A stretch of DNA of 64,000 nt from NCBI RefSeq assembly GCF_964355755.1, contig NC_092672.1:25364437-25428436 (forward strand), given 5' to 3'. The position numbers and the translations under genes were made by a program. This stretch comes from Antedon mediterranea (lineage: Eukaryota; Animalia; Echinodermata). The stretch's first letter is position 1. Every line of letters starts with the position of its first letter. Positions 25,841-53,438 of this stretch are shown one piece after another. Below the pieces are notes generated by a model that ran no database searches, was not told where the DNA came from, and saw only the letters and a program-made list of their open reading frames with translations.

Positions 25841-25859
25841 TCCAGCACCGCTGCCACCA
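25841..25859 (-). promoter_or_regulatory. Primer binding site, tRNA-Leu-type
   Basis: TGGTGGCAGCGGTG directly follows the 5' LTR on the minus strand, complementary to the ...ACCGCTGCCACCA 3' end of tRNA-Leu(AAG/TAG). Confidence 0.75.
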
Positions 25860-26294: not shown

Positions 26295-27815
26295 AAATTG
26301 TTCGAAATATACATATTTACATTCATTGTAATAGAAAATGTGGTTAAAAGATGAACAGAAATACTATTACTAATGTTTCAAACAAAAACCATATCTCTAC
26401 ATAACTTATCCTTAGACAGTAATGTTATGCAATAAATGATACTTTAAATTGTTTCAATTTCAAGTACTAGTTATTGCTGTCCCCAAGAACATTTTGATAT
26501 AAACGTCAAGCTCAACAGTTCTTTTCAGAATGCTAGAAGTAACTTGCCATGTGTATCCGATTAAACACCCCGGGCATTTATTGTTCAAAAGGGTTTTTAG
26601 GGGGAGGGGAGGCATCTTTATGTATAATCAAATAAATACCACCTAGATGTAAAAAAATACAGCACAATTAATATCAAAAAATGATAAAATTATTTCAAAA
26701 TGCTTGGTAAATTGTAGATTATGGTAGTTAATGAAATGTGTTGTGATGCAATTATTGTGTAAATGCATGTGGCGAGCGTATTCGATTCCACATGATGTTC
26801 TATTGGAGGGAATGGTGGCGTTTATTTGAGGGAGGCTTTTTTTCAAAGCGGGTTTTAATTCGAATAAATACTCTAATTTTAATAATTATAATTCGTTTCT
26901 CAACTGATAAAAGGTGCTTTACATGATTCGTTTTCTTTTTTTATGCATTTTAACGAAATGTTTCTGTCTTTTAGAATAAAAGTGACACTCATAGATAACA
27001 TTAAATGGATCTTCTCCTCCAGGTGCCAGTATAATGATATAAAACAATGACATATCATTATCCTGACACGATTGCACTCATAATGGATCTTCATTCTATT
27101 ATCATCTGTTTGTTTGTGACTACAATTTGACAACAATCTTTTGCATATTTTTAAATGCCAATACATAGTTTCATTACTATTTTACAATATGTCCAGTTTT
27201 CCTGAAAACACACTTGTGTACTGTAGTATAGTGTTGTAGTATGATTTTATCATGATAACTTTTGATGCTTTTATTGTCAATGCATTCAGTACCTAAAACA
27301 TGTCAAAGTTTCTAGTGGTATTGATAATAAATCTCCAGAAACATATTTGTTTTATTATCTACACTGGGAACAGACGTGTATAATATACCATTCAAAAATA
27401 TTATGCAACAGTGTTACGGAATAATGACAATGAATTGGTCTATTATAGTTGTCTCTGATTGTACTTGCACCAGGATAGAATGAGGTTTAATCCAGTTATT
27501 ATTCTTATTATATTAATTAATTTTTGTTATCTGGGGTGTATTTATTTGATTATACATGTTACCATTATTACACCCAATCAAAATAAACGCCTTCCCTGAA
27601 TAAATAATTCGGGTAAGTATGGTACTGTAAGTTACTTCTAGCATTCTTAACTGTTGAGCTCGAGTATTTATTCGAATTAACACCCGCTTTGAATAAAAGC
27701 CTCCCTCAAATAAACGCCACCATTCTCTCCAATAGAACACCATGTGGAATAAACGCTCCGCCACATGCATTTACAAAATAATTGTATCACAACACATTTC
27801 ATTAACTACCATAAT

Positions 27816-28410
27816 TTTTATTTATTTTATTTTATTTTATTCAAACTCATTCAACAGCGGGAAACCCGCCCCTTACAGAATGGAATAAACTATACCATAT
27901 AAAAATATATAAAAATCTTAAAATCTAGCAACACAAATTTATACAATTTTACTAATTTTATTACAAAAACAATTATAACGGTCAAAAAAGAGATCAATAG
28001 AATTATCTTTAACAACACAATTATTAAAAAGAAGACAAATACGTGAAATAAATCCATTCTTGGTAACATTAACACGACAATACGGCACATAAAGAAGATT
28101 ACATTTGGAATTACGAGTACGACAACCAACAGCTTTAACATGAAAGGAAAACAAGGAGATAAAATTACAATTGAAACGGGAATTCATACATTTATACAAA
28201 AACTGAAGATCGAACACAGAACGACGAGAGACAAGCGAAGGAAGAGAGACAGACAAAGGAGGACAGTGACAAGTAGAATACACAAAACGAACAAAACGAT
28301 CTTGGACTCTTTGAAGACGGGTACTATGAACAGACGAAAACGAATTAGACACAACACTACAGTATTCAAGATGGGGACAGACAAGAGAAACATATAAATT
28401 TATTAAAGTA
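27816..28410 (-). mobile_element. 5'-truncated LINE 3' fragment with (TAAAA)n tail, inserted in the right TIR arm
   Basis: Minus strand reads PHLEYCSVV and RLQRVQDRFVRF...RRSVFDLQFLYK; (TTTTA)n at 27816-27842. The flanks rejoin as CCATAATCTACAATTTACC, matching the left arm at ~26700-26730. Confidence 0.8.
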
Positions 28411-29550
28411 TTAATCTACAATTTACCAAGCATTTTGACATAATTTTATCATTTTTTAATATTAATTGTGCTGTATTCTTTTACATCTAGGTGGTATTTA
28501 TTTGATTATACATGTTACCATATTATACCCCAAATGAAGATGCCTCCCCTGCCTCTAAAAAACCCTTTGAACAATAAATTCCCGGGGCCTTTAATCGGAT
28601 ACACATGGCAATTCTGAAAAGAACTGTTGAGCTTGACGTTTATATCAAAATGTTCTCGTGGACAGCAATAACTAGTACTTGAAATTGAAACAATTTAAAG
28701 TATCAGTTATTGCATAACACTGTCTAAGGATAAGTTGTGTAGAGATATGTTTTTTGTTTGAAACATTACTAATAGTATTTTCTGTTCATCTTTTAACCAC
28801 ATTTTCTATTACAATGAATGTAAATATGTATATTTCGAACAATTTGATACCAAATTTAAGTTTCTACGACCAGTACTTACAGAGATATGAAGATGTATGG
28901 TATGTGGGTCAAAGGTCAGAAATGGAATTTCTGATCATTTTTTTACTAAAATGCCCCATTAGACGGAATATAAATGCATGCCTTCTGAATATTTTGAGAC
29001 CAAAATTGACTTGCTACGACCAGTGGTTGCCGAGATACAAGTACCTTTAATTATTTGTTCATATAACCCTTGACCCTGACCCTTTGACCTTTTGTAAAAT
29101 TTTTCAAAATGTATAACAAATAACAAAATATATATTTCAAACAATTTAAAACCAAATTCAAGTGTCTACGACCAGTAGTTACGGAGATAAATACATGCCC
29201 TGGATTGTGGGTCAAAGGTCAGAAATGACATTTTCGGTCATTTTTAACTAAAATGTCCCATTAGACTGAATATAAATGTATACCTTCTAATCAATTTGAG
29301 ACCAAAATTACTTCGCTGTGACCAGTGGTTGTTGAGATTTAATGACATATTGGTGTTTGGTCTTATGACCCTTCACCCTGACCTTTTGATCTTTCGCCAC
29401 ATCTTCAAAATGTGTAACCAAGCCAAAAATGATTGTTTGACCACCCTAAACCAATTTCTGAAGTCAAATTCTCTGGACCTCAAAGTGCATACGAAAGTTG
29501 ATCTAGCTACTAGAGTAAATTCTATCGTTGTTCATTTTTTTCCTAAGCAG

Positions 29551-30698: not shown

Positions 30699-32117
30699 GT
30701 AAGAATGCAAGCAATTGTTAACAGAAATTTGCCGAGGCATCGAAAATAATATTCATTCATTCAGGCTTATCGCCTGACTTTATTTACTTTAGGCCTCTGG
30801 CCCCTAGTTATTAACAAAATAATAATTACATTGAAAAATAAAGCAATTTATGGTCACAAGATAAATGAATTAATTAATTTTGCTCTCTAAGCAAAACATA
30901 TATCTTAACTTATAAGGATGATAAATATATTTAGATAGATTATCAATAATTATTGGATCCTGTGATGATATTAAACGGTAGAATTTAAAAGTATTTGGAT
31001 TTTCAAAAAATAAAGAAGGTATAAATTTTTTTCTGATTTCCTTGTAACGAGAGCAAACCGTAATAAAATGATATTCATCTTCAACTTTATTTACATTACA
31101 TATTTTACATAGCCTATTGCTGGACTCTATTCTTTTCCATCTTTCCTTTTCTACCTCTAGTTGAAGTGTGCCCAGTCTTAGTTGACTTAAAGCTCGCTTA
31201 TATCTATTATCAAGGGTCTGTAGTAAGTATCCATCTACTCCGAAATTGTTTTTGAACATTTTATAATATCTTAATTTTGAAGAAATATTTATGCTTTCAT
31301 GAAAGGATTGGCGTTCCATATCGGTTAGCTTTTCTTTTATTTTATTAATTATATAAATTTATCAAGGACATGTGAAAACCATAATATGGTCATGGAAGCA
31401 TATTATGCTTCCATGACCAATAGAGCATAACATATGTTTTACATCGCTTACCCAACAATTACTATTATTTGGCGCTTTGTGAAGTTGAGATTTATAACAT
31501 TTCTTTGCATATTTGTCCTCGTTCATATTTACTAGTCTTACCCAATAACGGATAACATTGAGTACACTTTCGATTGATAAAGAGAATCGTCCACATTCTC
31601 CTATAATTGAAACATTTGCGGCTGATTTCTCGACACCTAAAACATATCTACAGAAATTATTTTGAATATCATCAATTTTTTGGTTGTTTAGTTTTCCCCA
31701 TATTTCGCTACCATACAGTATAATTGGGTTTATTTTAACATCAAATAAGCAGTTCCAAATATTCACTGGTAGATGACCATATTTCTGATATACTATATTT
31801 TTGAGTGAGAAAAGTGCTTTATTAGTCTGTGTATTATTTTGTTCTCTGGCCTTTTCCCAATTTTTTTTATGCATTGACGATCAAACCATGTATTCTTAGG
31901 ATTTTTTTTGCATTTTTTTTTGTAATTTTGTTTGTTTTTTTTGTATTCTAAAGTTCTATAAAGTAATTAGGGATTCATCAATATCCTTTTTTTTAATATT
32001 TTCATTAATATCATCAAGAAATTTGAAAATGTGTTCATCATTAGGTGATCATTTAGAATAAAATGATCACCTATTGTTATTGTACAAAATCTTTATTATT
32101 ATTGTTATTATTATTAT

Positions 32118-32330
32118 TGGTTATCCGCCTCAAGCGGATAACCTTCGTTATTGTAGTGTTTCTTTTTGGTTATCCGCCTCAAGCGGATAAGCCCTTGGAA
32201 TTGTAGTGTTTCTTTTTTTTTATTGGTTATCCGCCTCAAGCGGATAAGCCCTTGGAATTGTAGTGTTACTTTTTGGTTATCCGCCTCAAGCGGATAAGAA
32301 TTTGTTATTGTAGTGTTACTTTTTTTTTTT
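32118..32330 (+). repeat. Four stacked family-A 5' heads (~32118, 32167, 32224, 32274)
   Basis: TGGTTATCCGC-CTCAA-GCGGATAA hairpin + TTGTAGTGTT + T-tract, repeated four times with variants. Confidence 0.92.
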
Positions 32331-33836
32331 TTTTATTATTCTTCTTTCTTTCTCAGATTTTGTGTACGCGTTTTCCCTTGAACATGTTAACGTAACGTGT
32401 TGTAACTTGGTCAACATATTGACAATTAACTGAAGATGTACTGCCAAGCTTTTTGACAATGTCAGATCCGCGTAGCGTAAGTTACGCGCGATTTTCTGAA
32501 AATCTTAAATCGGTCATAACTTCGAAACCGATAAATATTTTTTAACGAAATTTTCAGCCACGTTTTCTTCACATCAATGGCTAACTTTTGGAATGTTTAA
32601 CAAATTTTTGGAGATTAGAAAGTTTTCGCGTAAATTGCGTTTGAAATATTTTACTCTTCTTATTTTGTGCACGCTGTTTCTCTTCAACGTGTAAACATAA
32701 TATGTTGTAACTTGTTCAGCATTTAGACATTTTACTGAAGTTGTCCAGGCAAGCTTTTTGACGATGTCAGAGCCGCGTAGCGTAAGTTACGCGTGATTTT
32801 CTGAAAATCTTAAATTGGTTATAACTTCGAAACAAATGAATATTTTTTAACGTCATTTTCCGCCACGTTTGCTTCTCATCAATAGTTAACTTTTTTAACG
32901 CTACCGCAATTTGTAACATTAGAAAGTTCGCGCGTAAATGGCGTTTGAAATTTTAAAATGCTTCAAATCAATTTCTGATTAAATTAGAGCACGATTCAGG
33001 TCATTTTAAGCGTTAAAAAAATTGCCACTGGTGCGCACATTTTTACGCGCGCACGACGCAGGGAACACGTATGAACATTTCTTTTGCACGATTTGTGTTT
33101 TTAAATCTTCGGTTAACAATTTTACGTTATTTTATTCACTTTTCAACTTGAAAACGAGCACGTTAAACATAACAGGTTGCGCACGAAAACGTCAACAAAT
33201 TGTGAAAATGTTGCAAAATATGTCTACTTTTAAAAATGAAACATTTCATCAGAATGCAAGGTTACCCCCATTTTTTATTTTATTTTCTTGCAGTGTATTA
33301 ATCATAGGTCTAATTTATTATAGTCTTGAATGTTAAAAAGTGTTTGATAGCTACATTATTTGCATATTAAATGTAATTTTTGAAATAATTATCATCAAAC
33401 TAACATAAACATATTCAAAGAGTAAAACAATATACATAACGTTTATCTTTTTTCTTTACATGTTAATATATAAAACTTGAAAGTATGCACTTTCATAATG
33501 TGTAACTGTTTAAAATTTGTGAAGATTTCATCATAGTAAAAATTATGATTTAAGTTTGATATGTAATAATCAACTTGCATCGAGGGGGTTCACGACATAC
33601 CGAATGAACGAGGACTCTTTCTTCGGATTTTCTTCAGCAGGTGCTCATATGGCTCGATGTGTAGTGCAACCGACTTTGGTATCAGAGGTACCAGGATCGA
33701 ATCCCATCACGGGAAAGCAATTAAATAAAAAGATTTGTTTGGTTTACACTGAAAGGACAGTTTTAATTTTGAATAGATATGTTTTGTTGCGGGCGGATAA
33801 CCAAACTCGTCCTCAAGTGACGAGTTTAGATCTAGT
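32274..33836 (+). mobile_element. HINE family A element (~1.6 kb)
   Basis: Head, two tandem ~300-bp core units, a tRNA-like segment (~33643-33714), subTIR GCGGATAACCAA, hairpin AAACTCGTC-CTCAAGT-GACGAGTTT, end AGATCTAGT. Confidence 0.85.
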
Positions 33837-33909
33837 TGGCGGAGGCGGGTAGGAGGCGGATAACCTTTGTTATTGTAGTGTTACTTTTTTTTTTTTTTTT
33901 TTTTTTTAT

Positions 33910-35536
33910 TGGTTATCCGCCTCAAGCGGATAACCTTTGTTATTGTAGTGTTACTTTTTTTTTTTTTTTTTTTTTTTATTATTCTTCTTTCTTTCTCGGA
34001 TTTTGTGCACGCGTTTTCTCTTTAACGTGTTAACATAACATGTTGTAACTTCGTCAACATATAGACATTTAACTGAAGATGTACTGCCAAGCTTTTTGAC
34101 AATGTCAGATCCGCGTAGCGTAATTACGCGCGATTTTCTGAAAATCTTAAATCAGTCATAACTTCGAAACCGATAAATATTTTTTAACGAAATTTTCAGC
34201 CACGTGTTCTTCACATCAATGGCTAACTTTTGGAATGTTTAACAAATTTTTGGAGATTAGAAAGTTTTCGCGTAAATTGCGTTTGAAATATTTTACTCTT
34301 CTTATTTTGTGCACGCTGTTTCTCTTCAACGTGTAAACATAATATGTTGTAACTTGTTGAGCATTTAGACATTTTACTGAAGTTGTCCGGCCAAGCTTTT
34401 TGACGATGTCAGAGCCGCGTAGCGTAAGTTACGCGTGATTTTCTGAAAATCTTAAATTGGTTATAACTTCGAAACAAATGAATATTTGTTAACGTCATTT
34501 TCAGCCACGTTTGCTTCTCATCAATAGTTAACTTTTTTAACGCTACCGCAATTTGTAACATTAGAAAGTGCGCGCGTAAATGGCGTTTGAAATTTTAAAA
34601 TGCTTCAAATCAATTTCTGATTAAATTAGAGCATGATTCAGGTCATTTTAAGCGTTGTAAAAATTGCCACTGGTGCGCACATTTTTACGCGCGCACGGCG
34701 CAGGGAACACGTATGAACATTTCTTTTGCACGATTTGTGTTTTTAAATCTTCGGTTAACAATTTTACGTTATTTTATTCACTTTTCAACTTGAAATGGCG
34801 TTCTACGAGCACGTTAAACATGACAGGTTGCGCACGAAAACGTCAACAAATTGTGAAAATGTTGCAAAATATGTTTACTTTTAAAAATGAAACAGTTCAT
34901 CAGAATGCAAGGTTACCCCAATTTTTTATTTTATTTTCTTGCAGTGTATTAATCATAGGTCTAATTTATTATAGTCTTGAATGTTAAAAAGTGTTTGATA
35001 GCTACATTATTTGCATATTAAATGTAATTTTTGAAATAATTATCATCAAACTAACATAAACATATTCAAAGAGTAAAACAATATACATAACGTTTATCTT
35101 TTTTCTTTACATGTTAATATATAAAACTTGAAAGTATGCACTTTCATAATATGTAACTGTTTAAAATTTGTGAAGATTTCATCATAGTACAAATTATGAT
35201 TTAAGTTCGATATGTAATAATCAACTTGCATCGAGGGGGTTCACGACATACCGAATGAACGAGGACTCTTTCTTCGGATTTTCTTCAGCAGGTGCTCATA
35301 TGGTTCGATGTGTAGTGCAACCGACTTTGGTATCAGAGGTACCGGGATCGAATCCCATCACGGGAAAGCGATTAAATAAAAAGATTTGTTTGGTTAATAC
35401 ACTGAAAGGGCAGTTTTAATTTTGAATAGGCTACTTTTTGGAAAAGTCACAACTGAAAAGTACTTGAATGCGCAAGATATGTTTTGTTGCGGGCGGATAA
35501 CCAAACTCGTCCTCAAGTGACGAGTTTAGATCTAGT
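33910..35536 (+). mobile_element. HINE family A element, complete
   Basis: Same head, body and 3' hairpin as 32274-33836; nearly identical to 44639-46259. Confidence 0.85.
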
Positions 35537-35730
35537 TAGGTTATATGCATGATATGCATATAACCTCTTGATTCTGTCAAAATCTTTATTTATTTATTTA
35601 TTAGGTTATATGCATTATCATGCATATAACCTCTTGATTCTGTCAAAATCTTTATTAGGTTATATGCATGATATGCATATAACCTCTTGATTCTGTCAAA
35701 ATCTTTATTTATTTATTTATTTATTTATTT
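35537..35730 (+). repeat. Three stacked family-B 5' heads (~35537, 35602, 35656)
   Basis: TAGGTTATATGCAT..ATGCATATAACCT hairpin + CTTGATTCTGTCAAAATC + (TTTA)n, three times. Confidence 0.92.
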
Positions 35731-37144
35731 ATTCTTTCCTTAGCACTATTTTGTCCGTGCATTATCTTGGCATCAGTTTAATCTAGCTAAGTCAAGTTTT
35801 CAGAGTATATTCCTTATGGCCAGGAATCGATGTGGTTATATTTTCACGATGCGTAATCAAAAATTACGCGGTCTACGCGCGATTTTACGAAATCACGTTT
35901 GTAATCATATCTTCACAAGCATGAATCACAATTAAACAAAATTTGGTACTCATAAATTTCAGGTCATATTTCATCATATGGCAATACAATTACGTGCGTA
36001 GCGCATATAACGCTTGCGTACGCGCGCTTAAAATGTTCAAAATTGTCAAAATTTATTTTCGATGAAATTAGAGTACGTTTCAGGCAATTTTAAGCGTTTA
36101 AAAAATTGCCATGAGTGCGCAAATTTTTGCACGCGCACTGCGCGTTAAACGTTAATGCGCACTCTTTTTGCCCGATTTCTGTTTTACAATCTTTCTTTAA
36201 TAATATCATCATATTTGATTCAGGTTTCAACTCGGAATTGCGTTATACGAGCACGTCAAAAGTGATTGGCTACGCACGTATAAGTTAACAAAATGGTGAA
36301 AATATGCTAAATTTTTAAATTAATATATATCGTCAGAATGCAGGGGAACACCTATTTTTTATTTCATTTTCTTGAAGTGTATGTATCATATGTATGATTT
36401 ATTATCAAATTAAGAGAACCAAAGTTGATTAAGTCATCATTAATTGCATATTAAATTTAAAAAAAATAATTTCGACAATCAAACAAATTATGACATTTTC
36501 TTAGGCCAAAATAACAAACTTAACATTAACTTTCTTCCTTCAAAAGTTCATATATTAAAGTTAAAAGTATGTAGTTTGACAGTGCATCATTTGTTTACAT
36601 TTTAAAGATGTCATCATAGTAAAAAATTATAATTCATTTCGGTATGTAATAATCTATTTGCATCAAAGTGGTTACTGCATAGTAAATACACGGAGGAATC
36701 TTTCTACAAATTTTAGTCAGTTGTGTATGGCTCGGTGGTCTGTGCTCGTGTCTATGGCATTCAAGGTACCGAGATCGAGTCTCACCTTGGGAAACGAAAT
36801 AAGATTTTTTTTTTATTATCCGTATTGTTTGTTCAAATTTATTTCTTAGTGTATAGATTATACACATGATTTATAATGAAATCTAGATAAAAATTAACTT
36901 ATGTCTTTATTATTATGTAACAACAAATGTGGTTTATGACATTATACGCATATGGATCTTTGATCGGATTGTGATACCGGCTATGGTGTTCGCGTTAGCA
37001 AGGTACTAGGTCCTATCATATATTATAAATAATTAAAGATTCTGAGAAAATCAATCAATCAATATATCTTTAAAAAATCAATTATCTTTATTTAAATCAA
37101 TGCATATAACCTATAATTCGTCATAGTGACGAATTAAATCTAGT
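35656..37144 (+). mobile_element. HINE family B element (~1.5 kb)
   Basis: Head, body with a tRNA-like segment (~36720-36795), subTIR ATGCATATAACCTA, hairpin TAATTCGTCA-TAG-TGACGAATTA, end AATCTAGT. Confidence 0.85.
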
Positions 37145-37148
37145 TTAT

Positions 37149-38767
37149 TGGTTATCCGCCTCAAGCGGATAACCTTTGTTATTGTAGTGTTACTTTTTTT
37201 TTTTATTATTCTTCTTTCTTTCTCCGATTTTGTGTACGCGTTTTCTCTTGAACGTGTTAACATAACATTTTGTAACTTGGTCAACATATAGACAATTAAC
37301 TGAAGATGTACTGCGAAGCTTTTTGACAATGTCAGATCCGCGTAGCGTAAGTTACGCGCGATTTTCTGAAAATCTTAAATCGGTCATAACTTCGAAACCG
37401 ATAAATATTTTTTAACGAAATTTTCAGCCACGTTTTCTTCACATCAATGGCTAACTTTTTCGCTCTTCAGCAAATTTTTGAACACTAGAAAGTCTGCGCG
37501 TAAACTGCGTTTGAAATTTTAAAATGCTCCTAATTTGTGCACGCTGTTTCTCTGTAACGCGTTAACATAACATTTTGTAACTTGTTCAACATATAGACAT
37601 TTTACTGAAGTTGTCCAGCCAAGCTTTTTGACGATGTCAGAGCCGCGTAGCGTAAGTTACGCGTGATTTTCTGAAAATCTTAAATTGGTTATAACTTCGA
37701 AACAAATGAATATTTTTTAACGTCATTTTCAGCCACGTTTGCTTCACATCAATAGTTAACTTTTTTAACGCTATCGCAATTTGTAACATTAGAAAGTGCG
37801 CGCGTAAATGGCGTTTGAAATTTTAAAATGCTTCAAATCAATTTCTGATTAAATTAGAGCACGATTCAGGTCATTTTAAGCGTTTAAAAAATTGCCACTG
37901 GTGCGCACATTTTTACGCGCGCACGGCGCAGGGAACAGGTATGAGCATTTCTTTTACACGATTTGTGTTTTTAAATCTTCTGTTAACAATTTTACGTTAT
38001 TTTATTCACTTTTCAACTTGAAATGGCGTTCTACGAGCACGTTAAACATGACAGGTTGCGCACGAAAACGTCAACAAATTGTGAAAATGTTCCAAAATAT
38101 GTCTACTTTTAAAAATGACACAGTTCATCAGAATGCAAGGTTACCCCCATTTTTTATTTTAATTTCTTGCAGTGTATGAATCATAGGTCTGATTTATTAT
38201 AGTGTTGAATGCTAAAACGTGTTTGATGGCTACATTATTTGCATATTAAATATAATTTTTGAAATATTTATCATCAAACAAACATAAACTTATTCAAAGA
38301 GCAAAACAATAAACATAACATTTATCTTTTTTCTTTACATGTTAATATATAAAACTTGAAAGTATGTACTTTCATAAAATATCAGCGTTTAAAATTTTTG
38401 AAGATTTCATCATAGTAAAATTTATGATTTAAGTTTGATATGTAATAATCAACTTGCATCGAGGGGGTTCACGACATACCGAATGAACGAGGACTCTTTC
38501 TTCGGATTTTCGTCAGCAGGTGGTCATATGGCTCGATGTGTAATGCAACCGACTTTGGTATCAGAGGTACCGGGTTCGAGTCCCGTCACGGGAAAACAAT
38601 TAATTAAAAGGGTTTAGTTGGTTATTACACTGAGAGGGCAGTTTTAATTTTGAATAGCCTACTTTTTTTGGAAAAGTCATAACTTGGAAGTACTTGAATA
38701 CGCAAGATACGCTTTGTTGCTGGCGGATAACCAAACTCGTCCTCAAGTGACGAGTTTAAGTTCTAGT
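37149..38767 (+). mobile_element. HINE family A element, complete, nested among the B elements
   Basis: A head, A body and A 3' hairpin. Confidence 0.85.
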
Positions 38768-41596
38768 TTATTTATTCTTTCCTTAGCACTATTTTGTCCG
38801 TGAATTATCTTGATATCAGTTTCATCTATCTAAGTCAATTTTTCAGAGTATATTCCTTATGGCCAGGAATCGATGTGGTTATATTTTCACGATGCGTAAT
38901 CAAAAATTACGCGGTCTACGCGCGATTTTACGAAATCACGTTTGTAATCATATCTTCACAAGCATGAATCACAATTAAACAAAATTTGGTACTCATAAAT
39001 TTCAGGTCATATTTCATCATATGGCAATACAATTACGTGCGTAACGCATATAACGCTTGCGTACGCGCGCTTAAAATGTTCAAAATTGTCAAAATTTATT
39101 TTCGATGAAATTAGAGTACGTTTCAGGCAATTTTAAGCGTTTAAAAAATTGCCATGAGTGCGCAGATTTTTGCACGCGCACTGCGCGTTATACGTTAATG
39201 CGCACTCTTTTTGTCCGATTTCGGTTGTACAACCTTTCTTTAATAATATCATCATATTTTATTCACTTTTCAACGCGTAATTGCCTTATACGAGCACGTC
39301 AAAAGTGACAGGCTACGCACGTGTAAGTTAACAAAATGGTGAAAATATGCTAAATTTTAAAATTAATATAGATCGTCAGAATGCTCGGGAACACATATTT
39401 TTTATTTCATTTTCTTGAAGTGTATGTATCTTATGTATGATTTATTATTAAACTAAGGGAACAAAAGTTGATTAAGCCATAATTAATTGCATATTAAATT
39501 AAAAAAAATTCATTTCGACAATCAAACAAATTATGACATTTTCTTAGGCCAAAATAACAAACTTAACATTAACTTTCTTCCTCCAAAAGTTCATATATTA
39601 AAGTTAAAAGTATATAGTTTGACAGTGCATCATTTTTGTACATTTTTAGAGATGTCATCATAGTAAAAAATTATAATTCATTGCGGTATGTAATAATCTA
39701 TCTGCACCAAAGTGGTTACTGCATAGTAAATACACGAAGGAATTTTTCTACAATTTTTAGACAGTTGTGTATGGCTCGGGGGTGTGTGCTCGTGTCTATG
39801 GCACTCAAGGTACCGAGATCGAGTCTCACCTTGGGAAACGAAATAAGATTTTTTTTTTTATTATCCGTATTGTTTGTTCAAATTTATTTCTTAGTGTATA
39901 TATTATACACATGATTTATAATGAAATCTAGATAAAAAATAACTTATGTCTTTATTATTATGTAACAGCAAATGTGGTTTATGACATTATACGCAGAGGG
40001 ATCTTTGATCGGATTGTGATACCGGCTATTGTATTCGCGTTAGCAAGGTCCTATCATATATTATAAATAATTAAAGAATCTGAGAAAATCAATGAATCAA
40101 AATATCTTTTAAAAATCAATTATCTTTATTAAAATCAATGCATATAACCTATAATTCGTCATAGTGACGAATTAAATCTAGTTTATTTATTTATTCTTTC
40201 CTTAGCACTATTTGTCCGTGAATTATCTTGGCATCAGTTTCATCTATCTAAGTCAATTTTTCAGAGTATATTCCTTATGGCCAGGAATCGATGTGGTTAT
40301 GTTTTCACGATGTGCAATCAAAAATTACGCGGTCTACGCGCGATTTAACGAAATCACGTTTGTAATCATATCTTCACAAACATGAATCACTTTTAAACAA
40401 AATTTGGTACTCATAAATTTCAGGTCACATTTCATCATATGGCAATACAATTACGTGCGTAGCGCATATAACGCATGCGTACGCGCGCTTAAAATGTTGA
40501 AAATTGTCAGAATTTATTTTCGATGAAATTAGAGTACGTTTCAGGCAATTTTAAGCGTTTAAAAAATTGCCATGAGTGCGCCGATTTTTGCACGCGCACT
40601 GCGCGTCAAACGTTAATGCGCACTGTTTGTGTCCGATTACTGTTGTATAACCTTTCTTTAATAATATCATCATATTTTATTCACTTTTCAACGCGAAACA
40701 GCGTTATATGAGCACGTCAAAAGTGACGGGCTACGCACGTGTAAGTTAACAAAATGGTGAAAATATGCTAAATTTTAAAATTAATATATATCGTTAGAAT
40801 GCTCGGGAACACCTATTTTTTATTTAATTTTCTTGAAGTGTATGTATCATATGTATGATTTATTATGAAATTAGAAGAACAAAAGTTGATTAAGTCATCA
40901 TTAATGGCATATTAAATTTAACAAAATTAATTTCGACAATCAAACAAATTATAACATTTTCTTAGGCCAAAATAACAAACTTAACGTTAACTTTCTTCCT
41001 TAAGAAGTTCATATATTAAAGTTAAAAGTATATAGTTTGACAGTGCATCATTTTTTTAAATTTTTAAAGATGTCATCATAGTAAAACATTATAATTCATT
41101 GCGGTATGTATTAATCTATCTGCACCAAAGTGGTTACTGCATAGTAAATACACGGAGGAATTTTTCTTCAACTTTTAGTCAGTTGTGTATGGCTCGGTGG
41201 TCTGTGCTCGTGTCAATGGCATTCAAGGTACCGAGTTCGAGTCTCACCTTGGGAAACGAAATAAGATTTTTTTTTTATTATCCGTATTGTTCAAATTTAT
41301 TTCTTAGTGTATAGATTATACACATGATTTATAATGAAATCTAGATAAAAAGTTACTTTATGTCTTTATTATTATGCAACAACAAATGCGTTTTATGACA
41401 TTATACGCAGAGGGATCTTTGATCGGATTGTGATACCGGCTATGGTGTTCGCGTTAGCAAGGTCCTATCATATATTATAAATAATTAAAGATTCTGAGAA
41501 AATCAATCAATCAATATATCTTTTAAAAATCAATTATCTTTATTTAAATCAATGCATATAACCTATAATTCGTCATAGTGACGAATTAAATCTAGT
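38768..41596 (+). mobile_element. Two headless family-B bodies (38768-40182, 40183-41596)
   Basis: Each starts in the (TTTA)n tract at TTCTTTCCTTAGCAC and ends with the B subTIR, hairpin and CTAGT. They match the two unpaired heads at 35537 and 35602. Confidence 0.85.
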
Positions 41597-43155
41597 TATT
41601 CTTCTTTCTTTCTCAGATTTTGTGCACGCGTTTTCTCTTCAACGTGTTAACATAACATGTTGTAACTTGGTCAACATTTAGACATTTAACTGAAGATGTT
41701 CTGCCAAGCTTTTGGACGCTGTCAGATCCGCGTAGCGTAAGTCACGCGCGATTTTCTGAAAATCTTAAATCGGTCATAACTTCGAAACCGATAAATATTT
41801 TTTAACGAAATTTTCAGCCACGTTTTCTTCACATCAATGGCTAACTTTTGGAATGTTTAACAAATTTTTGGAGATTAGAAAGTTTTCGCGTAAATTGCGT
41901 TTGAAATATTTTACTCTTCTTATTTTGTGCACGCTGTTTCTCTTCAACGTGTAAACATAATATGTTGTAACTTATTCAGCATTTAGACATTTCACTGAAG
42001 TTGTCCAGCCAAGCTTTTTGACGATGTCAGAGCCGCGTAGCGTAAGTTACGCGTGATTTTCTGAAAATCTTAAATTGGTTATAACTTCGAAACAAATGAA
42101 TATTTTTTAACTTCATTTTCAGTCACGTTTGCTTCACATCAATAGTTAACTTTGTTAACGCTACCGCAATTTGTAACATTAGAAAGTGCGCGCGTAAATG
42201 GCGTTTGAAATTTTAAAATGCTTCAAATCAATTTCTGATTAAATTAGAGTACGATTCAGGTCATTTTAAGCGTTTAAAAAATTGCCACTGGTGCGCACAT
42301 TTTTACGCGCGCACGGCGCAGGGAACACATATGAACATTTCTTTTACACGATTTGTGTTTTTAAATCTTCGGTTAACAATTTTACGTTATTTTATTCACT
42401 TTTCAACTTGAAATGGCGTTCTACGAGCACGTTAAACATGACAGGTTGCGCACGAAAACGTCAACAAATTGTGAAAATGTTGCAAAATATGTCTACTTTT
42501 AAAAATGAAACAGTTCATCAGAATGCAAGGTTACCCCCATTTTTTATTTTATTTTCTTGCAGTGTATTAATCATAGGTCTAATTTATTATAGTCTTGAAT
42601 GTTAAAAAGTGTTTGATAGCTACATTGTTTGCATATTAAATGTAATTTTTGAAATAATTATCAACAAACAAACATAAACATATTCAAAGAGTAAAACAAT
42701 AAACATAACGTTTATCTTTTTTCTTTACATATTAATACATAAAACTTGAAAGTATGCACTTTCATAATATGTCAGTGTTTAAAATTTGTGAAGATTTCAT
42801 CATAGTAAAAATTATGATTTAAGTTCGATATGTAATAATCAACTTGCATCGAGGGGGTTCACGACATACCGAATGAACGAGGACTCTTTCTTCGGATTTT
42901 CTTCAGCAGGTGCTCATATGGCTCGATGTGTAGTGCAACCGACTTTGGTATTAGAGGTACCGGGATCGAATCCCATCACGGGAAAGCAATTAATTAAAAG
43001 TATTTATTAGGTTATTACATTGAAAGGGAAGTTTTAATTTTGAATAGGCTACTTTTTTGGAAAAGTCATAACTGAGAAGTACTTCAATACGCAAGATACG
43101 TTTTGTTGCGGGCGGATAACCAAACTCGTCCTCAAGTGACGAGTTTAGATCTAGT
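41597..43155 (+). mobile_element. Headless family-A body
   Basis: Starts TATTCTTCTTTCTTTCTCAG with no hairpin head; ends with the A 3' terminus. Confidence 0.85.
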
Positions 43156-44631
43156 TAGGTTATATGCATGATATGCATATAACCTCTTGATTCTGTCAGA
43201 ATCTTTATTTATTTCTTTATTTATTCTTTCCTTAGCACTATTTTGTCCGTGAATTATCTTGATATCAGTTTCATCTATCTAAGTCAATTTTTCAGAGTAT
43301 ATTCCTTCTGGTCAGGAATCGATGTGGTTATGTTTTCAGGGTGCGCAATCAAACATTACGCGGTCTACGCGCGATTTAACGAAATCACGTTTGTAATCAT
43401 ATCTTCACAAGCATGAATCACTTTTAAACAAAATTTGGTACTCATAAATTTCAGGTCATATTTCATCATATGGCAATACAATTACGTGCGTAGCGCATAT
43501 AACGCATGCGTACGCGCGCTTAGAATGTTGAAAATTGTCAGAATTTATTTTCGATGAAATTAGAATACGTTTCAGGCAATTTTAAGCGTTTAAAAAATTG
43601 CCATGAGTGCGCAGATTTTTGCACGTGCACTGCGCGTCAAACGTTAATGCGCACTGTTTTTGTCCGATTACTGTTGTATAACCTTTCTTTAATAATATCA
43701 TCATATTTTATTCACTTTTCAATGCGAAACAGCGTTATACGAGCACGTCAAAAGTGACAGGCTACGCACGTGTAAGTTAACAAAATGGTGAAAATATGCT
43801 AAATTTTAAAATTAATATATATCGTTAGAATGCTCGGGAACACCTATTTTTTATTTAATTTTCTTGAAGTGTATGTATCATATGTATGATTTATTATGAA
43901 ATTAGAAGAACAAAAGTTGATTAAGTCATCATTAATGGCATATTAAATTTAACAAAATTAATTTCGACAATCAAACAAATTATAACATTTTCTTAGGCCA
44001 AAATAACAAACTTAACATTAACTTTCTTCCTTAAGAAGTTCATATATTAAAGTTAAAAGTATATAGTTTGACAGTGCATCATTTTTTTCAATTTTTAAAG
44101 ATGTCATCATAGTAAAACATTATAATCCATTGCGGTATGTAATAATCTATCTGCACCAAAGTGGTTACTGCATAGTAAATACACGGAGGAATTTTTCTCC
44201 AACTTTTAGTCAGTTGTGTATGGCTCGATGGGATGTGCTCGTGTCTATGATATTCAAGGTACCGAGTTCGAGTCTCACCTTGGGAAACGAAATAAGATTT
44301 TTTTTTTATTATCCGTATTGTTTGTTCAAATTTATTTCTTAGTGTATAGATTATACACATGATTTATAATGAAATCTAGATAAAAAGTTACTTTATGTCT
44401 TTATTATTATGTAACAACAAATGCGGTTTATGACATTATACGCAGAGGGATCTTTGATCGGATTGTGATACCGGCTATGGTGTTCGCGTTAGCAAGGTCC
44501 TATCATTTATTATAAATAATTAAAGATTCTGAGAAAATCAATCAATCAATATATCTTTTAAAAATCAATTATCTTTATTTAAATCAATGCATATAACCTA
44601 TAATTCGTCATAGTGACGAATTAAATCTAGT
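43156..44631 (+). mobile_element. HINE family B element, complete
   Basis: B head, B body and B 3' terminus. Confidence 0.85.
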
Positions 44632-44638
44632 TTTTTAT

Positions 44639-46259
44639 TGGTTATCCGCCTCAAGCGGATAAGCATTTGTTATTGTAGTGTTACTTTTTTTTTTTTTTTA
44701 TTATTCTTCTTTCTTTCTCAGATTTTGTGCACGCGTTTTCTCTTGAACGTGTTAACATAACATTTTGTAACTTGGTCAACATATAGACAATTAACTGAAG
44801 ATGTACTGCCAAGCTTTTTGACAATGTCAGATCCGCGTAGCGTAAGTTACGCGCGCTTTTCTGAAAATCTTAAATCGGTCATAACTTCGAAACCGATAAA
44901 TATTTTTTAACGAAATTTTCAGCCACGTTTTCTTCACATCAATGGCTAACTTTTGGAATGTTTAACAAATTTTTGGAGATTAGAAAGTTTTCGCGTAAAT
45001 TGCGTTTGAAATATTTTACTCTTCTTATTTTGTGCACGCTGTTTCTCTTCAACGTGTAAACATAATATGTTGTAACTTGTTCAGCATTTAGACATTTTAC
45101 TGAAGTTGTCCAGCCAAGCTTTTTGACGATGTCAGAGCCGCGTAGCGTAAGTTACGCGTGATTTTCTGAAAATCTTAAATTGGTTATAACTTCGAAACAA
45201 ATGAATATTTGTTAACGTCATTTTCAGCCACGTTTGCTTCTCATCAATAGTTAACTTTTTTAACGCTACCGCAATTTGTAACATTAGAAAGTGCGCGCGT
45301 AAATGGCGTTTGAAATTTTAAAATGCTTCAAATCAATTTCTGATTAAATTAGAGCACGATTCAGGTCATTTTAAGCGTTGTAAAAATTGCCACTGGTGCG
45401 CACATTTTTACGCGCGCACGGCGCAGGGAACACGTATGAACATTTCTTTTGCACGATTTGTGTTTTTAAAACTTCGGTTAACAATTTTACGTTATTTTAT
45501 TCACTTTTCAACTTGAAATGGCGTTCTACGAGCACGTTAAACATGACAGGTTGCGCACGAAAACGTCAACAAATTGTGAAAATGTTGCAAAATATGTTTA
45601 CTTTTAAAAATGAAACAGTTCATCAGAATGCAAGGTTACCCCAATTTTTTATTTTATTTTCTTGCAGTGTATTAATCATAGGTCTAATTTATTATAGTCT
45701 TGAATGTTAAAAAGTGTTTGATAGCTACATTATTTGCATATTAAATGTAATTTTTGAAATAATTATCATCAAACTAACATAAACATATTCAAAGAGTAAA
45801 ACAATATACATAACGTTTATCTTTTTTCTTTACATGTTAATATATAAAACTTGAAAGTATGCACTTTCATAATATGTAACTGTTTAAAATTTGTGAAGAT
45901 TTCATCATAGTAAAAATTATGATTTAAGTTCGATATGTAATAATCAACTTGCATTGAGGGGGTTCACGACATACCGAATGAACAAGGACTCTTTCTTCGG
46001 ATTTTCTTCAGCAGGTGCTCATATGACTCGATGTGTAGTGCAACCGACTTTGGTATCAGAGGTACCGGGATCGAATCCCATCACGGGAAAGCAATTAAAT
46101 AAAAAGATTTGTTTGGTTAATACACTGAAAGGGCAGTTTTAATTTTGAATAGGCTACTTTTTGGAAAAGTCACAAGTGAAAAGTACTTGAATGCGCAAGA
46201 TATGTTTTGTTGCGGGCGGATAACCAAACTCGTCCTCAAGTGACGAGTTTAGATCTAGT
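44639..46259 (+). mobile_element. HINE family A element, complete
   Basis: A head, A body and A 3' terminus. Confidence 0.85.
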
Positions 46260-49076
46260 TATTCTTCTCTATTTCCGCCGATTTTTGTGTTCAGCTTTTC
46301 TCTGCAACCTGTTAACATAACATGTTGTAACTTGGTAAACATTTAGACATTTAGCTGAAGATGTGCAGCCAAGCTTTTGGACGCTGGCAGAGCCGCGTAG
46401 CGTAAGTTACGCGCGATTTTCAGAAAATCCTAAGTTGATCATAACTTCGAAACAGATGAATATTTTTTAACGTAATTTTCAGCCATGTTTGCTTCACATC
46501 AATTGCTAACTTTTTTATCGCTACCGAAATGTGTAACATTGGAAAGTGCGCGAGTAAACGGCGTTTGAAATTTTAAAATGCTCTAAATCAATTTCTGATT
46601 AAATTAGAGCACGATTCAGGTCATTTTAAGCGTTTGAAAAATTGCCACCAGGTGCGCACATTTTTACGCGCGCACGGCGCAGGAAACACGTATGAGCATT
46701 TCTTTTGCACGATTTGTGTTTTTCAATCTTCGGTTAACAATTTTACGTTATTTTATTCACTTTTCAACTTCAAATGGCGTTCTACGAGCACGTTAAACAT
46801 GACTGGTTGCGCACGTAAAATGTTAAAAAATTGTGAAAATGTTGCAAAATATGTATACTTTTAAAAGTGACACAGTTCATCAGAATGCAAGGTTACCCCC
46901 ATTTTTTATTTTATTTTCTTGCAGTGTATGAATCATAGGTCTGATTTATTATAGTGTTGAATGTTAAAACGTGTTTAATGGCTACATTATTTGCATATTA
47001 AATATAATTTTTGAAATTTTTATCATCAAACAAACATAAACGTTTTCAAAGAGCAAAACAATAAACATAACGTTTATCTTTTTTCTTCACATGTTAATAT
47101 ATAAAACTTAAAAGTATGCACTTTCATAATATGTCACTGTTTAAAATTTTTGAAGATTTCATTATAGTAAAAATTATGATTTAGTTTGCTAAGTAATAAT
47201 CTATTTGCATCGAGTGGTTCACGACATACCGAATGAACGAGTAAACTTTCTTCGGATTTCCTTCGGCAGGTGCTCATATGGCTCGATGTGTCGTGCAACC
47301 GACTTTGGTATCAGAGGTATCGGGTTCAAATCCCGTCACGGGAAAACATTTAATTAAATGGATTTATTTGGTTATTACACTGAAAGGGCAGTTTTAATTT
47401 CGAAAAGGCTACTTTATTGGAAAATTCATAACTGAGAAGTACTTGAATACGCAAGGTACGTTTTGTTGCGGGCGGATAACCAAACTCGTCCTGAAGTGAC
47501 GAGTTTAAGTTCTAGTTATTCTTCTTTCTTTCCGCCACTTTTTGTACGCGACGTTTCTCTGCAACGTGTTAACATAACATGTTGTAACTTGGTAAACCTT
47601 TAGACATTTAACTGAAGATGTGCAGCCAAGCTTTTGGACGCTGTCAGAGCCGCGTAGCGTAAGTTACGCGCGATTTTCTGAAAATCTTAAATTGATCATA
47701 ACTTCGAAACCGATAAATATTTTTTAACGTAACTTGCAGCCACGTTTTCTTCATATCAATGGCTAACTTTTTCAATCTTTAGCACATTTTTGGACACTAG
47801 AAAGTTTGCGCGTAAATTGCGTTTGAAATTTTAAAATGCTCCAAATTTGTACACGCTTTTTCTCTGCAACGCGTGAACATAACATGTTGTAACTTGGTCA
47901 ACATATAGACATTTAACTGAAGATGTGCAGCCAAGCTTTTGGACGCTGTCAGAGGCGCGTATCGTAAGTTACGCGCGATTTTCTGAAAATCTTAAATTGA
48001 TCATAACTTTGAAACAGATAAATATTTTTTAACGTAATTTTCAGCCAAGTTTGCTTTACATTAATTGTTAACTTTTTTATCCCTACCGAATTTTGTAACA
48101 TTAGAAAGTGCGTGCGTAAACGGCGTTTGAAATTTTAAAATGCTTTAAATCAATTTCTGATTAAATTAGAGCACGTTTCAGGTCATTTTAAGGGTTTAAA
48201 AATTGCCACTGGTGCGCACATTTTTACGCGCGCACGGCGCAGGGAACGCGTATAAGCTTTTCTTTTACATAAAATGTGTTTTTCAAACTTAGGTTAACAA
48301 TTTTACGTTATTTTATTCACTTTTCAACTTGAAATGGCGTTCTACGAGCACGTTAAACATGACTGGTTGCGCACGAAAACGTCAACAAATAGTGAAAATG
48401 TTGCAAAATATGTCTACTTTTAAAAGTGATACAGTTCATCAGAATGCAAGGTTACCCCCATTTTATATTTTATTTGATTACAGTCTATGAATCGTAGGTC
48501 TGATTTATTATAGTGTTGAATGTTAAAACGTGTTTGATGGCTACATTATTTGCATATTAAATATAATTTTCGAAATTGTTATCATCAAACAAACAATAAC
48601 ATATTCAAAGAGCAAAACAATAAACATAACGTTTATCTTTTTTCTTTACATGTTGATATATAAAACTTGAAAGTATGCTCTTTCATAATATGTCACTGTT
48701 TAAAATTTATGAAGATTTCATCATAGTAAAAATTATGATTTAGTTCGATATGTAATAATCAACTTGCATCGAGGGAGTTCACGACATACCGAACGAACGA
48801 GTAATCTTTCTTCGGATTATCTTCGGCAGGTGCTCATATGACTCGATGTGTAGTGCAACCGACTTTGGTATCAGAGGTACCGGGATCGAGTCCCGTCACG
48901 GGAAAACAATTAAATATAAGGATTTATTTGGTTGTTACACTAAAAAGGCAGTTTTAATTTCGAATAGGCTACTTTTTTGGAAAAGCCAAAAACTGAAAAG
49001 TACTTGAATGCTCAAGATATGTTTTGTTGCGGGCGGATAACCAAACTCGTCCTCAAGTGACGAGTTCAGATCTAGT
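46260..49076 (+). mobile_element. Two headless, more diverged family-A bodies (46260-47516 with one core unit; 47517-49076 with two)
   Basis: No heads; both end in the A subTIR, hairpin and CTAGT. They share subfamily variants such as GATGTGCAGCCAAGCTTTTGGACGCTG. Confidence 0.85.
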
Positions 49077-52000
49077 TATTCTTCTTTCTGTACACTTTTT
49101 GTTTAGCAATTATCTCAAAAAGTTGAATAACAATGATCACAAAAATGTCACAATGTCTTTCAAGTACTTTAACTTAGCCATAATAAGCTTTTCAGCGTGA
49201 TCACTCCACCGTGACGTCACGTATACGCGATTTTGTGAAATCACATTATCAATCATATGTCCATAATTGATTATCACATATTTATGAAATTCTCTACACG
49301 TCAATTTCAGGTCAAGGTAAAAAATATTAGAAAATAAAAACTCGCGCGTCTCAAGGTCATGCACGTGAAATCGCGCATAAAGATTTTAAAAAGCTCAAAA
49401 TTAAGTTTTGATCAATTTAGAGTATGAATTAGGCCAATTGCGTGTTTCAAAAAATTACTGCGCAAAAATACGTTTTTGCGCACGCAATCCTTAAAAAGCG
49501 GTAAAAAATAAAATTTGATGTATACATCACATTCTACACACAATCCTTAGTACATTCTCCGATTTTGAGTCCAGTCCGACTTAAAATAACGGTATACGAG
49601 CACGTTAAACATGACAAAATGCGCACATTAATTGTACAAAAGTGCTAAAAATGGTAAAAAGTAGGGCCCTTTTAAAATGAATATAACTCTTCAGAATGGA
49701 AGATGACCCCCAATTTTTTAAACTTAATATGGAAGCCAATGAGTTGTAGATATAAATGTATATACACATTAGACGTACAAAATGGTATGACGTCATCAAA
49801 TGGCCACTTGAATTTAAAAATTAGTAATTTTTATCTTTTTGTGTGGGTTATCACATTCAATAGAGCGCATCTCCGTTATTTGAACCCAATTTTAGCTCAA
49901 CTTTTAGTATGTGCTTGCTCAATTAATTATCTTTCTCATGAGTTGTCAACATTTTCATTTTGATGACGTCATCATGCGTAAAAACTTGAATAACCTAGGT
50001 CGTGTATTTTCAGCTACACCATACATTTGAATATCTTACAGCTCTTCAGAATTAAAGGTGACCTTGAAGATTATAACTTATTATGAAAGCTGATGAAATG
50101 TAGATATGAATTCATAAAAAATTAAGCCTATTGGATGTTGTGACGTTATCTTATGGCCAGTTGAAGTTAAAAAGTAGTTTTTAAATTTCTTTAGTTGAAG
50201 TTATACAAATTTCAAAGAGCGCGCATTGCGCTTCTACGTGTCAAATTCTCTTCCAATCCTTATATTTATTTGCTCAATTCATTATCTTTCGAAATTGTCA
50301 TCTTCGAGTTTATTTTGATAATTCCATCATACCAAAAATTTAGAACACGATGTGGGTCCCGTAATTTCACCTATGCTACACTGTATATAGATATACAGTA
50401 TATACTGTACATATTGTATATGAAACATAATAGGTACAACTCAGCACTATAAGTGTATATGCATCATGTCATAGGATGGCGTACATCAATTTTTTACGAT
50501 CGTATGTTAACGTACGTGCATGTTTAAAAAATGTTAATTTCATTAAAATAATAAAAATGATCACCTATAATTCGTCAAAGTGACGAATTAAATTCTAGTT
50601 CCATTTGTCATTGGCTTTATTCACCTTTGTTTCGGACCATTGAAATGTTTCATGTGTTTTCCAGATTTCTTTTTTTAAATCGTTCGTGATTTCTTTTTTG
50701 TTTTGTTTAGTCTCTAATAAAATTTCAAAATGTAAAGGCATATGGTCGGATTCTATCCTAATATCCACTTTTGGTCTTATTATTTTATCAAAATTAACTG
50801 GAAAAGTAATAATGTAGTCAACAACACTTTTGCAAAATTTTCAAAAAAAGTAAAGCACCTACTAAATTCCCTATTTATCCTACCATTTAATATTCTCATC
50901 CCTGTTTTTTTTTGCAATGATTTAATAAATTAATTCCATATTCATTGACTATTTGATCTTCATTACTTCCTATATTACTATCCATTTCATTATCTTCTTT
51001 ATATATATCATTATCCCAATTGGGTGGACATTCATCTGTAATAAAATCATTCATTGTACCTGTTCTTCCATTCAAATCTCCCATTACATATATATTATTT
51101 CCAAACTTTTTTTGTGATTTGTTAGGTCATTAGAAATAGTTCCAAAAAAATTTTGATTATTTATAGCATGTGTTGAATTAACTGGTGGTCTATATACCAC
51201 TGCTAAGGCGATATTTTCAGAATTATGCTTGATAGATAACCAACATATATAATTTGATGTACTGGGAAGTTCTTTAACATCTAAATTTGTTTTATAATAA
51301 ATAATAATACCGCCACTCTTTCTACCCCCTGCTTTATGTCTTATGGACAATTTACTAATACAGTCATATCCTTCTATATAACAATTTTCTACAGGTCCTG
51401 TCCATGTTTCTACTAAACATACAATATCATATTTTTAAATATAGTTCACAAAATCAGAGTCGTTTATTTTATTCTGTAAACCATTCACATTCCAGTGACA
51501 TATTAGTGACCACACAGTAAAATGAATGCTTGAAATAACCAGAATATCATAAATATATTAAATTGTTATATATATCTTATGATTTATATTATACAGATAT
51601 TGACTGCTTAGAGGTTAAATATAAGATTTGACATCCCCGAGGGAATGATATTATGTTCGAGGGAATATATAATTCCCAAGAACTTAATATCATTCCCGAG
51701 GCGATATCTGTTATATTACATAGCCAACAACAAGTAGAATATCTGCTTGGTGGGGTAGCTAGGCCTAGTATGTAAAAACGATGCCCAGACACCTTACCTT
51801 TCGAAGAATAATATACAGATAATTACTACGGTACGGTAATTAATGATTCCTCGACAATGAAATATTCACTAGCCTAGGTCGTTTAAATAATAACAGAAGA
51901 ATTTCCATCAATAAGCCTACATTAATAATAATATTATCAGGTAGGCCTAGCCTAGGCCGAATAAATAATAATTCGTCTTCATATTTTGAGCCGAATCACC

Positions 52001-52461
52001 GGATGTTCAGTGCGTCGCGCGCGTACCAGTTACTACTGTGAGTATTAACCAATCACAAACGGTGTTTCATCACATCTAGGGAGGACTAAAAATAAATGAG
52101 GGCGCTATGTATGCATAGTTTAAATAGTTTAGATGATTACATTCTTCAAGCAAGCTCCGTGGCGCAGTGCATGAAGCGTTGTCTTGTGATGGAGTGACAA
52201 TTTCATCGCGAGTTCAAGACTCAGTAGATGACTTTTGTTTATTTATCGGCAAACGCGAGTGTTGCCACACGAAATTTACACAGTCAATATCATCGTACTC
52301 GAGAATTTATATGATTAATGACAGGGGGACACGATAATTACGCAAAAAATACTCAGTCAATATCATCGTTCTAGAGGATAACAAGCACGAATGTGCAATA
52401 CTCGGGGTACAGCGAAAGAAGCTGTATACAGACGTATACAGTTAGAAAGTTAAAGAAAAAT

Positions 52462-52533
52462 AGGTTTCGCCAGGGCTCGAACCGGGACCTTCTGCGTGTT
52501 AAGCAGACTTGACAACCACTACACTACGAAACC
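52462..52533 (-). tRNA. tRNA-Val(AAC)-like, probably pseudo
   Basis: GGTTTCG-TAGTGTAGTGG...TCTGC-TTAACAC-GCAGA-AGGTCCCGGTTCGAGCCCTGG-CGAAACC, followed by a T-run. D and T stems imperfect. Confidence 0.65.
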
Positions 52534-52744
52534 TCTTACATTGAAATTGTGGGTTACAGAAAGTTTTTTAATCCATTTAAATTACAAATAAATGGTAATA
52601 AGCACAAAGCAAAATAAACATGTGTAAAAGTGATAATTACCGATTACACACAAAATAAGTATTTAAAAAAAGAATAATAAGATATACTGTGTATAATTAT
52701 CATATTGCGTATACAGTACTTTTCACCATAAAGTTAAAAAAAAA

Positions 52745-53171: not shown

Positions 53172-53438
53172 GAGGACTAGTGCTGTTCCGCCGTACCACG
53201 CCGAGAATGTTAAAGAGTCGCTATCCAATCGAGTTAGAACAATACCATGAAAGCCCCAGTGGTCTAATGGTTAGGACATCTGCATATCAAGCAGGCGGTC
53301 CGAGTTCGAGTCTCGGTTAGGGCGACTTTTTCTCATTCTCACAGATTTCCTCATCTTTATCGTTTCAAAATTAATTAATTAAATATCAGTATATCACCGG
53401 GCGGTTTAGAATTAATGTTCTTTGCTGATTTGTTTATA
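53172..53438 (+). repeat. ~370-bp TA-flanked repeat family with an internal tRNA-like cloverleaf (copy 1, 5'-truncated; cloverleaf 53253-53324)
   Basis: Homologous to 55655-56012 (-), 57002-57177 (-) and 58958-59560 (+). A box TGGTCTAATGG, B box GAGTTCGAGTC, then a T-run. Confidence 0.8.

Follow-up and report, generated by a model that had tools for sequence, protein, structure and literature searches.

A seven-layer nest of Helentron-like elements within a LINE-like remnant of Antedon mediterranea

How can 13 transposon heads and only 12 bodies come to lie in one 18.5-kb block of DNA in which heads and bodies each occur in runs? We addressed this question in a window of 64,000 nt of the Antedon mediterranea genome (assembly GCF_964355755.1, contig NC_092672.1, positions 25,364,437–25,428,436, forward strand); all coordinates given here are positions in this window. 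The block (32043–50598) is made up of copies of three related non-coding families, A, B, and C, all on the plus strand. Heads and tails were located by motif search and their order was then parsed. With an opening bracket for a head and a closing bracket for a body, the order is C( A( A( A( A( )A O( A( )A B( B( B( )B A( )A )B )B )A B( )B A( )A )A )A )C, as had been written in a preliminary description of this DNA, in which O was an "odd half-head". The search yielded 7 A, 4 B, and 1 C exact heads and tails of 7 A, 4 B, and 1 C copies, each with a CTAG end.

Each element consists of a 5' hairpin, a T(n)/(TTA)n/(TTTA)n pad, a body of approximately 1.3–1.6 kb, a 3' subterminal repeat, a hairpin, and CTAG. 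The subterminal inverted repeats (subTIRs) measure 11 bp in A, 13 bp in B, and 12 bp in C. The 5' copy pairs with an adjacent inverted repeat to form hairpins of –11.3 to –11.7 kcal/mol in A, B, and C (destroyed in O), and the 3' copy ends 31–33 nt before the CTAG end and is followed in all three families by a stem-loop with a stem of 9–11 bp. Heads open with TT and then GG or AGG, not with the 5' TC of canonical Helitrons (HLE1), whereas the 3' hairpin and CTRR end of that class are matched by 12 of 12 tails (hairpin plus CTAG). Inverted repeats at the very ends, which define MITEs, were not found, the 3' repeat being set inside with the hairpin beyond it. TT precedes 13/13 heads and follows 12/12 tails, and each insertion adds two T; within the stack, T carried by the element and a TT duplication are indistinguishable, an ambiguity also present in the available text of PMC2374699. 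The longest stop-free frame was 91–108 amino acids in the one copy of each of the three families that was tested, which leaves the elements without coding capacity. Of the 13 long ORFs or frames in the window, 11 were scanned, and none of these encodes a Rep/Helicase partner, so that class membership is judged on structure. By that measure, the families are Helentron-like, of the HINE/DINE-1 type (nonautonomous Helentrons, HLE2): the subTIRs, 5' hairpin, 3' hairpin, and microsatellite that the preliminary description had listed are all present, and they match the type as described in the accessible parts of PMC4067079, PMC2374699, PMC7492417 (oyster Cg_HINE), and PMC11417382 (HELIANO).

Families A and B have approximately 770 bases in common at 69% identity, and C shares short blocks with both as well as a 39-base tail with B (92%). 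Two central 300-bp repeats are present in A (84%) and two of 250 bp in C (69%); B has none of that size. A segment with two boxes was detected by pattern in eight of the 11 A and B bodies (36728–36783, 38529–38584, 41190–41245, 42919–42974, 44221–44276, 46024–46079, 47279–47334, and 48839–48894) and nowhere else in the window. We take it to resemble the internal promoter for RNA polymerase III of tRNA-derived SINEs; neither ARAGORN nor Rfam made a call for it. ARAGORN called no tRNA in the stack, and five Rfam matches, all far below the gathering score and four of them on stacked B hairpins, were rejected. A fourth HINE-like copy, D, lies outside the block on the minus strand (2110–2970) and is 84% identical to the B body over approximately 530 bases. 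It has its own hairpin head, with two (GTCT)n arrays in place of the T-rich pad and no nested copy, and its body start forms a loose end in the public run X1.

The order of heads and bodies is that of a nest. Only 20 of 2,000,000 shuffles of the 24 tokens of the preliminary description closed last-in-first-out with matched families (exact probability, 1.9e-5), and, for a given bracket shape, the six detached bodies would fall in this order with a chance of 1 in 60. The stack contains three runs of heads and two of bodies, and no head-to-tail repeat units were found in it. Bodies differ by 1.2–10.2% among A copies and by 2.3–5.8% among B copies, with no identical pair. Token order, body divergence, and the shuffle test thus speak for nesting rather than for a rolling-circle concatemer or an unequal-crossover satellite, as the preliminary description had held. 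A misjoin in the assembly, or a tandem array produced by either of those processes, is very improbable. A concatemer would also be expected to give tail-to-head joints of TT only, and no contig bridging the stack or the junction between flank and C was among the pieces listed, although absence of cover proves nothing. Such origins are opposed, however, by the lack of identical bodies, by pads and flanks that rebuild to the base of the nest, and by the fact that two of the three TT-only joints connect an A tail with a B head, a product that is impossible from a single circle. We conclude that the block is a nest of 12 elements, seven layers deep, within a single TT of a LINE remnant. Compared with random-attachment trees of 12 copies, its depth was not significantly different (P = 0.056).

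The base of the nest was examined by translating the two flanks separately. Both belong to a decayed LINE-like ORF2 remnant on the minus strand: the left flank (30870–32042) is its downstream part and gave no Pfam hit, and the right flank (50599–51520) is its upstream part, in which Pfam detected part of an endonuclease domain (Exo_endo_phos) at E = 3.4e-4, short of the curated cut-off. We take the left flank to be the later part of the decayed ORF2. The two frames meet if one TT is kept. The block therefore represents one clean insertion that added two T, and C landed at an ordinary TT rather than in a tract. The host seems to be without its reverse-transcriptase part, its frame jumping, after the stack, to the terminal region, and a contig of run X1 leaves the window at 31860–31900 for its last 116 bases.

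The window also contains other repeats. An LTR retrotransposon (19626–26294) with 435-base LTRs that are 99% alike, and with integrase before reverse transcriptase in a long frame, splits a 1.1-kb repeat (18945–19625 and 26295–26721), an inverted copy of which is located at 28412–29523. Another 1.1-kb element is present twice in inverted orientation (6405–7502 and 8583–9704; 91%), with 150-bp internal repeats related to those at 18945–29523. To the right of the block, several copies of a tRNA-like repeat (53253–53324, 55767–55838, 59457–59528, and 57002–57177; three called as Asp with an ATC anticodon) probably represent a SINE. Two of them flank a remnant at 53.5–55.5 kb that gave no Pfam hit and that is presumably a Penelope-like reverse transcriptase. 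A tRNA-Val was called at 52461–52534.

The nest unfolds from the outside as follows. The outermost element is C (depth 0), with its head, a 12-bp subTIR in a hairpin with a 13-bp stem, and (TTA)n pad at 32043–32118 and its body, with 3' subTIR, hairpin, and CTAG, at 49076–50598. Within it lie A1, an extra 5' end without a body according to the pad test described below (32119–32167), and A2 (depth 1; head and pad 32168–32224, body 47516–49075). A2 encloses A3 (depth 2; head and left part of pad 32225–32274, body 46259–47515), which has a single 300-bp core repeat rather than two and which hosts A4 (32275–33835), O (head 33838–33910, body 41596–43154), B4 (43157–44630), and A7 (44640–46258), all at depth 3. 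O in turn hosts A5 (33911–35535) and B1 (head and (TTTA)n pad 35538–35602, body 40182–41595) at depth 4; B1 contains B2 (depth 5; head and pad 35603–35656, body 38767–40181), and B2 contains B3 (35657–37143) and A6 (37150–38766) at depth 6. A4, A5, A6, A7, B3, and B4 are uninterrupted.

This tree departs from the preliminary description with regard to the outer A copies. Behind its hairpin, O is equal in sequence to A5 and A6; its 3' arm reproduces, exactly and in inverted orientation, the first 13 bases of a normal head, and only its 5' arm is destroyed. Judged by these bases, O is a real, eighth A head. There are thus eight A heads for seven A bodies, and the reported balance of 7 A, 4 B, and 1 C heads and bodies, which is correct for exact heads and tails, is not exact for the block. 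The segment 33838–33866 carries the inverted 13-base copy together with a degenerate repeat of the same, an arrangement resembling the outcome of template switching at a hairpin that had been broken. To find the head without a body, we relied on the pad, which in 4/4 uninterrupted A copies reads as a T run, then ATT twice, then CTT. Guests were removed, and the interrupted A copies were checked for a return to this solo form. With A1, A2, A3, or O as the bodiless head, the solo pad was restored in three, two, one, or none of the three interrupted A copies, respectively. The bodiless head is therefore the outermost A head, A1, and not O, and the earlier pairing of the three outer A copies, which rebuilds the pad in 0/3 copies versus 3/3, is set aside. 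A clean (TTTA)n pad was rebuilt in both interrupted B copies. With A1 bodiless, the bodies assigned to A2 and A3, which share a head variant, form one group (support 1.0), and the body assigned to O is 3.3% from A7. The body of A1 may have been lost by recombination between adjacent bodies, or A1 may have arrived as a second head, as proposed in the accessible text of PMC5148889. When the body at 47516 was checked for a recombination seam, its last informative sites leaned to the A7 type, with a mixed pattern. In run X1, one contig has a 47516-type body start behind the A2 pad at a loose end, which fits the corrected pairing but would also be compatible with an A1-type head, and which we do not count as proof.

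Where the elements entered is consistent throughout. All 12 inner heads lie in pads and none lies in a body, and pads of A, B, and C are all occupied; the preliminary statements that every inner junction falls in the T-rich pad behind a head, and that the three families have this pad in common, therefore stand. At each insertion, TT remains on either side and no base is lost. Individual bonds were used repeatedly, one by A4, O, and B4 in A3 and another by A5 and B1 in O, as is expected where a target survives insertion (PMC5932611, in the portion available). Counted on the six uninterrupted copies of the 12, pads make up 16% of short T-motif sites, which gives P = 2e-10 for 12/12 inner heads in pads, and 58% of long tracts, which gives P = 0.0016 for 12/12 or 0.008 for 9/9 if only nine events are independent. 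A T9–10 tract resembling the A pad is present in all four B bodies and was used in none.

These counts bear on the possibility that the head itself guides insertion, with a transposase that binds or melts the resident 5' hairpin and places the donor in the adjacent T-rich strand, so that position would count beyond sequence. We consider this unlikely, but it has the concentration of inner heads in pads and the unused T tracts of the B bodies in its favor. O, on the other hand, hosts insertions despite its destroyed hairpin (the damage may predate or postdate them), and C entered a plain TT.

Public contigs allowed the same junctions to be sought beyond this locus. Nine public runs contain part of the window, all as contigs; X6 to X9 are from one sample, and X5 (share 0.07), with short matches only, was left out of one stretch comparison. 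Among the matches listed, the depth in X6 was 3244.4 and 2196.4 for joints from a B pad to an A head, 4904.8 for an A tail to a B body, and 5502.7 and 3651.9 for an A tail directly to an A head, and that in X9 was 404.5 for an A tail to an A body start. A joint from the T tract of a B body to an A head was absent from the matches listed, which we do not count as evidence. Recurrence of the same junction types at high depth in an independent sample indicates that nesting is not confined to this locus, as had been suggested. The depth of A in X6 was taken as 50,000–73,000 (the lowest per-position sum, or X1 scaled by flank). About 7–11% of this depth enters a B pad and 12–18% of tails touch a head, rough shares given that depth is not copy number. 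In X1, the path from head through pad to body had a depth of 57.5, compared with 75.1 for the body, so that solo copies make up about three quarters of A and solo copies with a single head are the rule, in agreement with the usual form assumed earlier. A metagenome scan with the B and C tails gave no match, and that with the A head gave one of 25 bases, which was rejected as chance: the contig shares nothing else with the window and reads like a bacterial ribosomal-protein region.

The share expected to enter B pads genome-wide is 0.03–0.3% if a six-base motif suffices and 0.6–6.5% if a (TTTA)n tract is needed, as calculated from 184 and 3 background sites, respectively, in 45,441 bases and an assumed genome of 265–500 Mb. 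Compared with the observed share of approximately 7–11%, a plain TT preference is thus not enough, whereas a preference for long tracts is nearly sufficient. The excess over the six-base expectation also favors guidance by the head, but the (TTTA)n expectation, which rests on three background sites in 45 kb, comes near to the observed share, and the counts are inflated by amplification of composites.

Such amplification is suggested by the joints themselves. The commonest entry (3244) and exit (4905) joints in X6 spell the unit B2(A6) as it would have been before B3 arrived, and each of the two junctions of A6 is found again, at high depth, among the public contigs. The distance of A bodies to the nearest copy was 9.3% at depth 1, 8.9% at depth 2, and 1.2–3.3% at depths 3–4; A6, the deepest copy at depth 6, is 6.6% from its nearest relative in the stack and looks old, too diverged for its depth. 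Depth and distance were not significantly correlated for all seven A copies (Spearman rho = –0.56, p = 0.19), and without A6 they were (rho = –0.89, p = 0.016, six of seven copies). The joints together with the divergence of A6 suggest that a B(A) composite probably spread as a unit and that part of the nest arrived preassembled, in which case the contig shares are inflated and the stack records fewer separate insertion events. The earlier estimate of about 11 successive insertions is weakened to that extent, since B2(A6) and the A1–A2 double head may both have come ready-made. That the stack is mostly the product of composite amplification, with a few nesting events copied as units by read-through transposition or duplication and assembled as modules, we regard as improbable. 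The B2(A6) joints, the age of A6, and the double head, which fits the chimera with two 5' ends in the available text of PMC5148889, agree with it, but the two B()A() pairs of the stack have different spacers and are of different subfamilies (5.8% and 6.6%), the contigs contain two or more forms of entry and two or more types of tail, and, even with modules, most stack junctions are distinct pad insertions.

We favor, with some reserve, a preference for T tracts with pads that renew themselves, in elements that likely move by rolling-circle transposition, as the account of the nest, over guidance by the head. The non-coding elements would likely depend for mobilization on an enzyme of the Helentron type whose gene lies elsewhere, and TT within long T-rich tracts is their likely insertion site; a preference for T-rich DNA or TT is reported in the accessible parts of PMC4067079, PMC2374699, and PMC7492417, and double insertion at a preserved site is known for other transposons (PMC5932611, available portion). 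The pad would be the best target that an element offers, and it would survive each insertion on both sides while each newcomer brings a new pad, so that the nest would feed its own growth and, the T-rich strand being fixed, would keep one orientation. Some layers would have been ready-made, namely a B copy already bearing an A copy and an A copy with two heads. This account is supported by the match of order and family, by the rebuilding of pads, by the agreement of head subtype with body group, by the greater divergence of the outer A bodies (with A6 left out), by the in-frame flanks, and by the external junctions. The unused T9–10 tracts of the B bodies are less well explained by plain tract preference, and the nonsignificant trend of age with depth for all seven A copies, the head without a body, the absence of a partner from the window, and that of a spanning contig from the pieces listed also count against it. 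An extra pull towards a resident head is possible and is not needed for most of the data. It is conceivable, but doubtful, that Helentron-type enzymes aim at the strand directly behind a resident 5' hairpin, whichever related family it belongs to, and recognize element ends in a family-specific manner. An outer element could then carry an inner one past its stop signal, and nests would be both purposely built and mobilized as whole units.

Target choice and copy termination of Helentron-type elements are biochemically unsettled according to the accessible text of PMC4067079. A nest that rebuilds to its base provides the insertion order, the exact target bonds, and a built-in control in the unused T tracts of the B bodies, and it makes targeting by sequence alone and guidance by a head testable against each other. 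Runs of heads and headless bodies that would be annotated as fragments or satellite can be intact nested copies.

In the literature covered, mostly freely accessible main texts, we found no description of Helentrons nested this deep within their own microsatellite. Self-insertion near the 5' end had already been proposed in the accessible part of PMC5148889. HINE/DINE-1 elements, as described in the available portions of PMC4067079, PMC2374699, PMC7492417, and PMC11417382, have a GTCY microsatellite, whereas here the microsatellite is itself the T-rich target, and those portions describe no seven-layer stacking such as that of the copies in the window. Elements with two left ends in Xenopus, shuffled loci in oyster, and plant arrays cited in the review PMC12628747 are on record in the accessible accounts, and the available text of PMC12001565 adds nothing further on self-insertion. 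In accessible accounts of maize Helitrons, nesting followed by mobilization from one end likewise yields extra termini, but those elements are of the canonical type and a defined internal pad is not described there. Tandem dimers in Drosophila (PMC5932611, available portion) are similar in that a target preserved after insertion draws a second insertion to the same site; that target is host DNA, however, and not carried by the element, and the word Helitron does not occur in that text. The closest likeness is with FoHeli of Fusarium oxysporum, for which the accessible part of PMC5148889 proposes self-insertion within the first 31–85 bases and predicts a chimera in which a single 3' end is combined with two 5' ends, as fits the A1–A2 double head. 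FoHeli is represented there mainly by spare ends and one nested case, whereas in the window heads and bodies persist together in three families. Self-insertion is thus known for this class of elements, and the stack is a deep, readable case of it rather than a new element class.
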